Program-made: the position numbers and the translations under genes
Notes under the pieces: model-generated
The model's database searches: none
What the model was told of the DNA's origin: nothing
Seen by the model: only the letters and a program-made list of their open reading frames with translations
In this document: piece after piece, positions 45,175 through 45,340 of the stretch
Layout of the letters: each line of letters begins with the position of its first letter
Numbering within the stretch: the stretch's first letter is position 1
NCBI RefSeq assembly: GCF_054482525.1
Contig: NZ_CM137006.1
Length of the DNA stretch: 64,000 bases
Strand: one strand, 5' to 3'

Positions 45175-45340
45175 TTACATGTTCTTGATGATTGCATCAC
45201 CAAACTCGCTGCATTTCAGCAGTTTAGCACCTTCCATCAGACGTTCGAAGTCATAGGTTACGGTCTTGGCGTTGATTGCGCCTTCCATACCTTTAACAAT
45301 CAAGTCTGCGGCTTCAGTCCAGCCCATATGGCGCAGCAGT
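45175..45340 (-). pseudogene. icdC: 3' fragment of isocitrate dehydrogenase gene (icdC-like), prophage attachment junction
   Basis: Minus strand translates to ...[54 protein letters not shown] stop; no upstream icd sequence. Confidence 0.85.

Follow-up and report, generated by a model that had tools for sequence, protein, structure and literature searches.

A displaced icd 3' end at the very probable attR of a phage-21-type lambdoid prophage

The stretch of DNA analysed here (64,000 nucleotides, hereafter the window) contains an isolated 3' end of icd, the gene for isocitrate dehydrogenase. With a probability of about 0.95, the point at which this icd sequence stops, 45338/45339, is the attR of a lambdoid prophage that integrated at the phage 21/e14 site in the icd 3' end, through site-specific recombination by a tyrosine integrase. 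Judged by the P arm beside the junction and by a proxy genome, MEI003, the integration module of this prophage is of the phage 21 type and not of the e14 type. The features on both sides of the junction are collected in Table 1.

Table 1. Coordinates of the features at the junction and in the right arm of the prophage
Feature	Position	Strand	Basis
iraM, first backbone gene beside attR	44749..45072	+	Annotated at the same relative position in MEI003, K-12 and PCN033
Native icd intrinsic terminator hairpin	45129..45151	-	9-bp stem, 6 GC pairs, T-run
Displaced host icd 3' end (Icd residues 363-416 + stop)	45175..45338	-	Protein and DNA identity
Interval predicted to contain the strand-exchange (core) site	45304..45338		Host identity ends at 45338; replica/host identity 35 nt
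P arm of phage-21-type attP	45339..45579		93.8% identity, 241 nt, to M61865.1 positions 2375-2615
TTTTGGGGAA, candidate integrase arm-type site in P arm	45458..45467	+	Sole exact copy in the window
GNAT acetyltransferase, phage cargo	45807..46244	+	Pfam Acetyltransf_10/_1/_7; 145-aa acetyltransferase in MEI003
XRE-type HTH + cupin transcriptional regulator, phage cargo	46269..46853	-	Pfam HTH_3, Cupin_2; 194 aa
ompT, omptin outer-membrane protease, phage cargo	47351..48304	+	Pfam Omptin E 3e-130
appY, AraC-family activator, DLP12-type cargo	48554..49303	-	Pfam HTH_18/HTH_AraC; annotated in SB0258h1, 97.9% identical block
Tail-fibre-domain protein with intramolecular chaperone domain	50315..51355	-	Pfam Peptidase_S74; SB0258h1 annotation tail fiber domain-containing
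Side tail fibre gene stf, amber-interrupted	51646..54024	-	Pfam phage_tail_N
lom, Ail/Lom outer-membrane protein	54089..54688	-	Pfam Ail_Lom E 2e-126
Tail tip attachment protein J	54756..58235	-	Pfam GpJ domains
Lambda-type tail genes I, K, L, M, H (tape measure), T, G	58296..64000	-	ORF list; MEI003 and SB0258h1 annotation

The icd fragment and its terminator

The fragment comprises 164 nt encoding 54 residues, with the TAA stop codon of the minus-strand translation at 45175-45177. Its peptide aligns from end to end with residues 363-416 in the structures of E. coli isocitrate dehydrogenase (E 1e-29) and matches the C-terminal end of the Pfam Iso_dh model (positions 301-348 of 348) with 26.7 bits, which lies just below the gathering cut-off of 27 bits, as is expected for a piece of 54 aa. 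Its DNA agrees at 100% with the end of the uninterrupted icd gene in E. coli PCN033; the icd homology ends abruptly at 45339, beyond which the DNA is AT-rich and unrelated to icd. A preliminary description of the locus had placed the last ~55 residues of the enzyme at 45175-45340; it named the gene correctly, and the exact extent is 54 residues ending at 45338, 2 nt less. It had also held that no upstream icd sequence is present. This is borne out by a 29-nt icd probe, which at up to 3 mismatches has a single copy in the 64-kb window (0 expected by chance); as this copy is the fragment itself, there is no upstream icd sequence within the window.

The hairpin 3' of the fragment's stop codon is the same as the sequence downstream of the intact icd in PCN033. 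Together, the two make up a duplicated partial icd 3' end (~165 coding nt and terminator) without an attached icd 5' part, the arrangement by which an attR at the icd site is recognized. The corresponding fragment in the MEI003 genome is annotated as a partial icd pseudogene, the K-12 counterpart is icdC, and PGAP routinely labels such fragments as a partial 'isocitrate/isopropylmalate family dehydrogenase' pseudogene. A promoter scan around the fragment yielded 5 hits, no more than the 5.1 expected by chance, and gave no evidence of fragment expression. For annotators, the 50-aa 'ORF' at the junction is an icdC-type pseudogene.

The empty site and the position of the junction

The backbone from 25000 to 45200 is nearly identical (100.0% in the search table) to that of three complete E. 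coli genomes, SCU-102, 19KM1776 and PCN033. PCN033 lacks the prophage and has the gene order ycgX, IS200C, ymgK, iraM, intact icd, rluE and nudJ; in this related genome the attB is uninterrupted, with icd directly next to iraM, and an insertion explains the whole difference from the window. Compared base by base over 43000-45338, the two sequences differ by only 2 mismatches (at 43931 and 44596); the stretch 44597-45338 is mismatch-free and gives way to unbroken mismatch from 45339 on. This abrupt divergence sets the junction at 45338/45339. The same comparison indicates that the fragment is the 3' end originally present in the host, displaced from the rest of icd, and that the DNA below the junction is backbone and the DNA above it inserted. 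The perfect match to PCN033 is informative because few genomes have this host icd 3' allele: just 10 records reach an identity of 99% or more to it, with most E. coli icd 3' ends at 90-95%.

The preliminary description had proposed a prophage/chromosome junction, with backbone below and prophage above it, and had called it the right junction. The junction itself is confirmed by the empty site of PCN033 (iraM-icd-rluE), which matches the window to 45338 and not beyond. The division into two sides also holds, a 50-kb prophage in MEI003 being closed by the same attR, with the qualification that the backbone has an IS200C as well; and 'right' is correct in the lambda sense, this being the tail/b-region side with the P arm. 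The practical value of these comparisons is that the prophage boundary is fixed to the nucleotide.

That the fragment stems from a segmental duplication, or from a recombination scar that has nothing to do with phage integration, has next to no probability. Nothing specific speaks for it; rearrangement or IS activity is possible in principle, with IS200C only 0.9 kb away, but the same IS200C is also found in the empty-site strain PCN033 and is hence unrelated to the junction. The breakpoint falls on exactly the nucleotide of the known attB of phage 21 and e14, DNA of the phage 21 attP arm abuts it, and the insertion is clean relative to PCN033. Such a duplication, which the preliminary description had raised against its own reading, was considered and is rejected, as the attB-position match, the P arm and the empty site effectively refute it.

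It is hardly conceivable, too, that the fragment is a phage-borne icd replica, as would be found at an attL-like or tandem-prophage junction. The attP of the phage 21 type does have an icd replica of equal length; however, the fragment and its flank through iraM (44597-45338) are without mismatch to PCN033, whereas the fragment differs by ~5% from the phage 21 replica and shares only 90-95% identity with most E. coli icd alleles, and it adjoins the P arm rather than the int-proximal P' arm. This origin was rejected as contradicted by the base-by-base comparison with PCN033, and we retain the fragment as the displaced host end.

Other features of the backbone

The IS200C insertion (709 bp, Y1 transposase, minus strand, 43545-44253) lies between ymgL and ymgK. 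It predates the prophage or is independent of it, since it is also present in PCN033, SCU-102 and 19KM1776. Draft contigs carrying this prophage stop ~0.5 kb beyond iraM, as would fit an assembly break at IS200C.

Farther from the junction, a 476-aa ORF between cvrA and dadX (14488-15918, plus strand) has a match to Pfam LRR_4 (E 1e-7) and is a hypothetical protein in PCN033; it is not known to belong to the K-12 gene order at the cvrA-dadX locus. An adhesin of the ECIAI39_1904 family is split into two ORFs (33781-36429, minus strand), with the internal stop also annotated in PCN033, and a ypjA/ehaD-like autotransporter beside minE is represented by a C-terminal remnant only (32121-32564, minus strand); these two backbone autotransporter genes look degraded.

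The phage arm next to the fragment

The segment of the phage 21 record that matches the window beyond the junction (M61865.1, 'icd pseudogene, xis, int', positions 2375-2615) directly adjoins the phage's own icd replica at 2158-2374. The motif TTTTGGGGAA lies 120 nt from the junction in both the window and phage 21; phage 21 has 1 copy in the P arm and 3 in the P' arm between int and the icd replica, the attL of MEI003 has three copies, and the motif is absent from the e14 junctions. We consider these copies to be candidate arm-type integrase sites, with which the 1997 work of Wang et al. is reportedly consistent. The candidate emerged from the comparison with phage 21 and not from a generic repeat search over 45100-45720, which returned only short two-copy matches of chance quality.

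In M61865.1 the 'icd' feature is annotated at 537..700 (complement), whereas by sequence the replica lies at ~2158-2374 and is convergent with int. The annotated interval corresponds to 2211-2374 if the 2,910-bp record is numbered in the opposite direction, and the coordinates appear to follow complementary numbering.

The junction could alternatively belong to an element of the type of e14, the cryptic prophage of K-12, instead of a phage-21-type lambdoid phage: its icd breakpoint is the same nucleotide as that of K-12 icdC, and the e14 integrase IntE is 60% identical to the phage-21-type integrase. We regard this as highly improbable, as the e14 region of K-12 matches the window over the host part only (45000-45341), and the e14 arm (the mcrA side, beside icdC) does not resemble the window's P arm, which is 93.8% identical to phage 21 attP; the e14 junctions also lack TTTTGGGGAA, and the tail genes in the window are lambda-type, unlike those of e14. 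An e14 element was rejected on the grounds that its specific mcrA-side DNA is not found beside the fragment and that no similarity extends beyond 45341. The comparison with e14 drawn in the preliminary description is accurate for the breakpoint, which is the same nucleotide as in e14/icdC, and fails for the arm, which is of the phage 21 type.

Integration at icd and the other end of the prophage

The icd gene is the textbook case of a phage-supplied replacement gene end, from work done on e14 and phage 21 between 1988 and 1997. For a prophage of the phage 21 type, attP would carry the phage's own copy of the last ~165 coding nt of icd together with the terminator, and Int with host factors would recombine this attP (P arm, core, icd replica and P' arm) with the attB inside icd, the strands being exchanged at the 5' edge of the shared icd block. 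The attL so formed would consist of the host icd 5' part, the phage-borne 3' end and int, and the gene would stay functional; the attR would consist of the P arm and the host 3' end, the latter surviving as a promoterless pseudogene (45175-45338). The preliminary description had likewise invoked a replacement end carried by the phage. This mechanism is upheld, but the fragment in the window is the host's displaced end, with the replacement at the other junction, outside the window.

Published accounts describe icd as a well-known prophage site and an occupied hotspot (PMC10111431, PMC3603311). An attP brings replacement sequence when its integrase targets a site inside a gene, with icd cited in this context (PMC10111431), and integration at icd is stated to duplicate the 3' end and to leave the ORF length unchanged (PMC3603311).

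The phage 21 replica and the host allele of the window are identical over the first 35 nt of the shared block (45338-45304), and in K-12 the first difference between attL and attR falls at nt 11 of this block. The most likely place of the core is therefore TGCTGCGCCA (45329-45338), the initial ~10 nt of the block, both bounds (10 nt and 35 nt) assuming no later mutation or conversion.

As the attL, int and intact icd of the window's own genome lie outside the window, MEI003 serves as a proxy for them. Its attR is 98.9% identical to the window over 45000-48307 (iraM, icd fragment, GNAT gene, HTH regulator and ompT), and its icd fragment closes a lambdoid prophage of ~50 kb. At the other end of this prophage, the intact icd is followed after a gap of 113 nt by a convergent integrase and an excisionase, and onward by exo/bet/gam, a cI-like repressor, replication genes, Q, lysis genes, Nu1/A, head genes and tail genes. 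The integrase of MEI003 shares 99% identity with phage 21 Int, compared with 60% for e14 IntE; several lambdoid phage records, among them 4A7, Perceval and PhiR47_2, have an integrase 100% identical to it, and that of ev207 is 99.7% identical. The icd 3' end at the MEI003 attL and the fragment at its attR show scattered silent differences and encode the same amino acids, and the attL copy matches the phage 21 replica. Being of the phage 21 type and differing only silently, the attL copy thus behaves as expected of a phage-supplied replacement end. By analogy with this proxy, the only genome in which they were seen, an intact icd, a phage 21 int/xis pair and a complete lambdoid genome may be expected at the other end of the window's prophage.

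Cargo and tail genes

The prophage extends off the window past 64000. Its tail genes have the order G/T, H, M, L, K, I, J, lom and stf of a lambda-type tail module, with matching Pfam families, and a short region of tail-fibre-assembly remnants lies between appY and the gene for the tail-fibre-domain protein. The exact J protein is found in 24 or more assemblies, in which the genes from J to the icd fragment and iraM are arranged as in the window. The right end of PhiR29_1, a complete phage genome, has the same set of GNAT, HTH-cupin and ompT genes (99.0%), which marks this set as mobile phage cargo. For the source strain this means that ompT, appY, the GNAT acetyltransferase and the HTH-cupin regulator are phage-borne cargo and not core genes. 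The combination of a lambda-type tail, icd integration and an appY-ompT cargo, to which the preliminary description had drawn attention, is indeed present; the pairing of tail and icd site, however, is no novelty, as phage 21 and many sequenced lambdoid phages show it.

Relative to the 99.7% identical, intact 792-aa stf of GCA_016669325.1, the stf gene in the window has an amber codon, W573* (TAG at 52306-52308, TGG>TAG at 52307), which splits it into ORFs of 574 aa and 205 aa. This amber codon, along with two assemblies 99.7-99.99% identical to the window that appear to lose phage genes upstream of FI, could point to a decayed remnant, i.e., a fixed island in which the attR, tail and cargo were kept and the integrase, attL or head genes were lost. 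Such a remnant is unlikely, as two assemblies that are 100% identical to the window keep capsid E, D and the S49 protease upstream of the tail genes, and all the tail ORFs in the window except stf are full length. Moreover, lambda-type phages are viable despite an stf defect, as seen in lambda PaPa. Decay would in any case bear on present activity only, leaving the origin of the junction as an attR unchanged. The stf amber and the shortened copies in two close assemblies may nonetheless mean that the prophage is no longer fully functional.

In ERZ28601986 and GCA_052512945.1, the two assemblies 99.7-99.99% identical to the window's prophage arm, the phage genes seem to stop upstream of FI. The capsid gene E is shortened or missing there, with either a DUF2971 gene or an ORF that lacks annotation next to it, a pattern suggesting that the left part of the prophage was deleted in some close relatives.

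The mosaic right arm

From 47238 to 64000 (ompT, appY, the tail fibre genes, lom and J to G), the window is 96-98% identical to the DLP12-position prophage in SB0258h1 and many other strains. A DLP12 (argU-integrated) prophage was rejected as the identity of the element, given that this similarity stops at 47238 and that the flank is icd/iraM; no tRNA or tRNA fragment was found in 40000-64000.

The SNP patterns switch within ompT: up to ~47375 the window follows the MEI003/PhiR29_1 type, whereas from ~47494 it shows no mismatch to the DLP12-site type against 8-9 differences from the icd-site type, with 47424-48355 mismatch-free relative to the DLP12-site prophage of SB0258h1. This switch indicates that the right arm is recombinant, with ompT as the shared homology. 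We lean towards a recent event in which an end of the phage 21 type (attR, GNAT and HTH-cupin genes) was linked, through a crossover at 47376-47493 within the 5' part of ompT, to an ompT-appY-tail segment otherwise typical of DLP12-site prophages. The moron ompT would then act as a portable homology patch by which appY, an anaerobic/acid-phosphatase regulator, moves between prophages with different integration sites.

The exact combination of ompT-appY with a phage-21-type end at icd was found in 0 of 5,426 complete E. coli genomes; likewise, the arrangement of 45100-64000 in full is absent at icd from the complete RefSeq genomes. The combination at icd is present in at least 24 other assemblies; in the assembly collection, 24 contigs show the exact right arm, and the identity to the window reaches 100% in two draft assemblies. 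Contig ABCWAY010000007.1 of GCA_020269365.1 is 100% identical over 44756-64000. A literature search for ompT together with an icd prophage returned nothing specific. This mosaic, with appY placed beside an icd-type end via the ompT crossover, is the sole mildly new element of the locus and is routine lambdoid mosaicism.

Frequency of the junction

The 164-nt fragment occurs at 7,330 places in 5,406 complete genomes, with up to 4 per genome. The junction type, counted with a 340-nt probe across the junction (fragment and 21-type P arm) that had to be covered over at least 80%, is present in 1,464 of the 5,426 complete E. coli genomes (~27%). The junction is ordinary: the phenomenon is already known, and there is no new biology in it.

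Comparison with known systems

Phage 21 has the same icd target nucleotide as the junction in the window and an attP of the same layout, namely P arm, core and icd 3' replica, terminator, and then convergent int and xis. It diverges from the window by ~6% in the arm; the phage 21 record is only 2.9 kb long, which places cargo and tail genes outside this comparison. The e14/icdC locus of K-12 has a like scar, a displaced icd 3' end of 165 nt beside iraM with an identical breakpoint (the start of TGCTGCGCCA), and the flanking backbone of K-12 has the same order as the window (iraM, ymgK, ymgL, ycgX and bluR). However, e14 itself is a defective element of 15 kb with other tail and cargo genes (lit, pinE and mcrA).

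Lambdoid prophages at the DLP12 site (argU) have an appY-ompT right end like that of the window, the SB0258h1 copy adjoining envY-ybcH-nfrA. The window differs from them in its icd-type attR and in the two extra genes (GNAT and HTH-cupin) between ompT and the junction. The MEI003 prophage shares the attR, the GNAT and HTH-cupin genes and the 5' end of ompT with the window (98.9%), whereas downstream of ompT both MEI003 and PhiR29_1 have an alpha/beta hydrolase, a ybcY-like methyltransferase and tfa genes, with no appY there; the similarity of PhiR29_1 to the window is lost at 45520, inside the P arm. Other published lambdoid prophages at the icd site include NC-SV of NC101 and 50icd/61icd (PMC12803456, PMC10111431).
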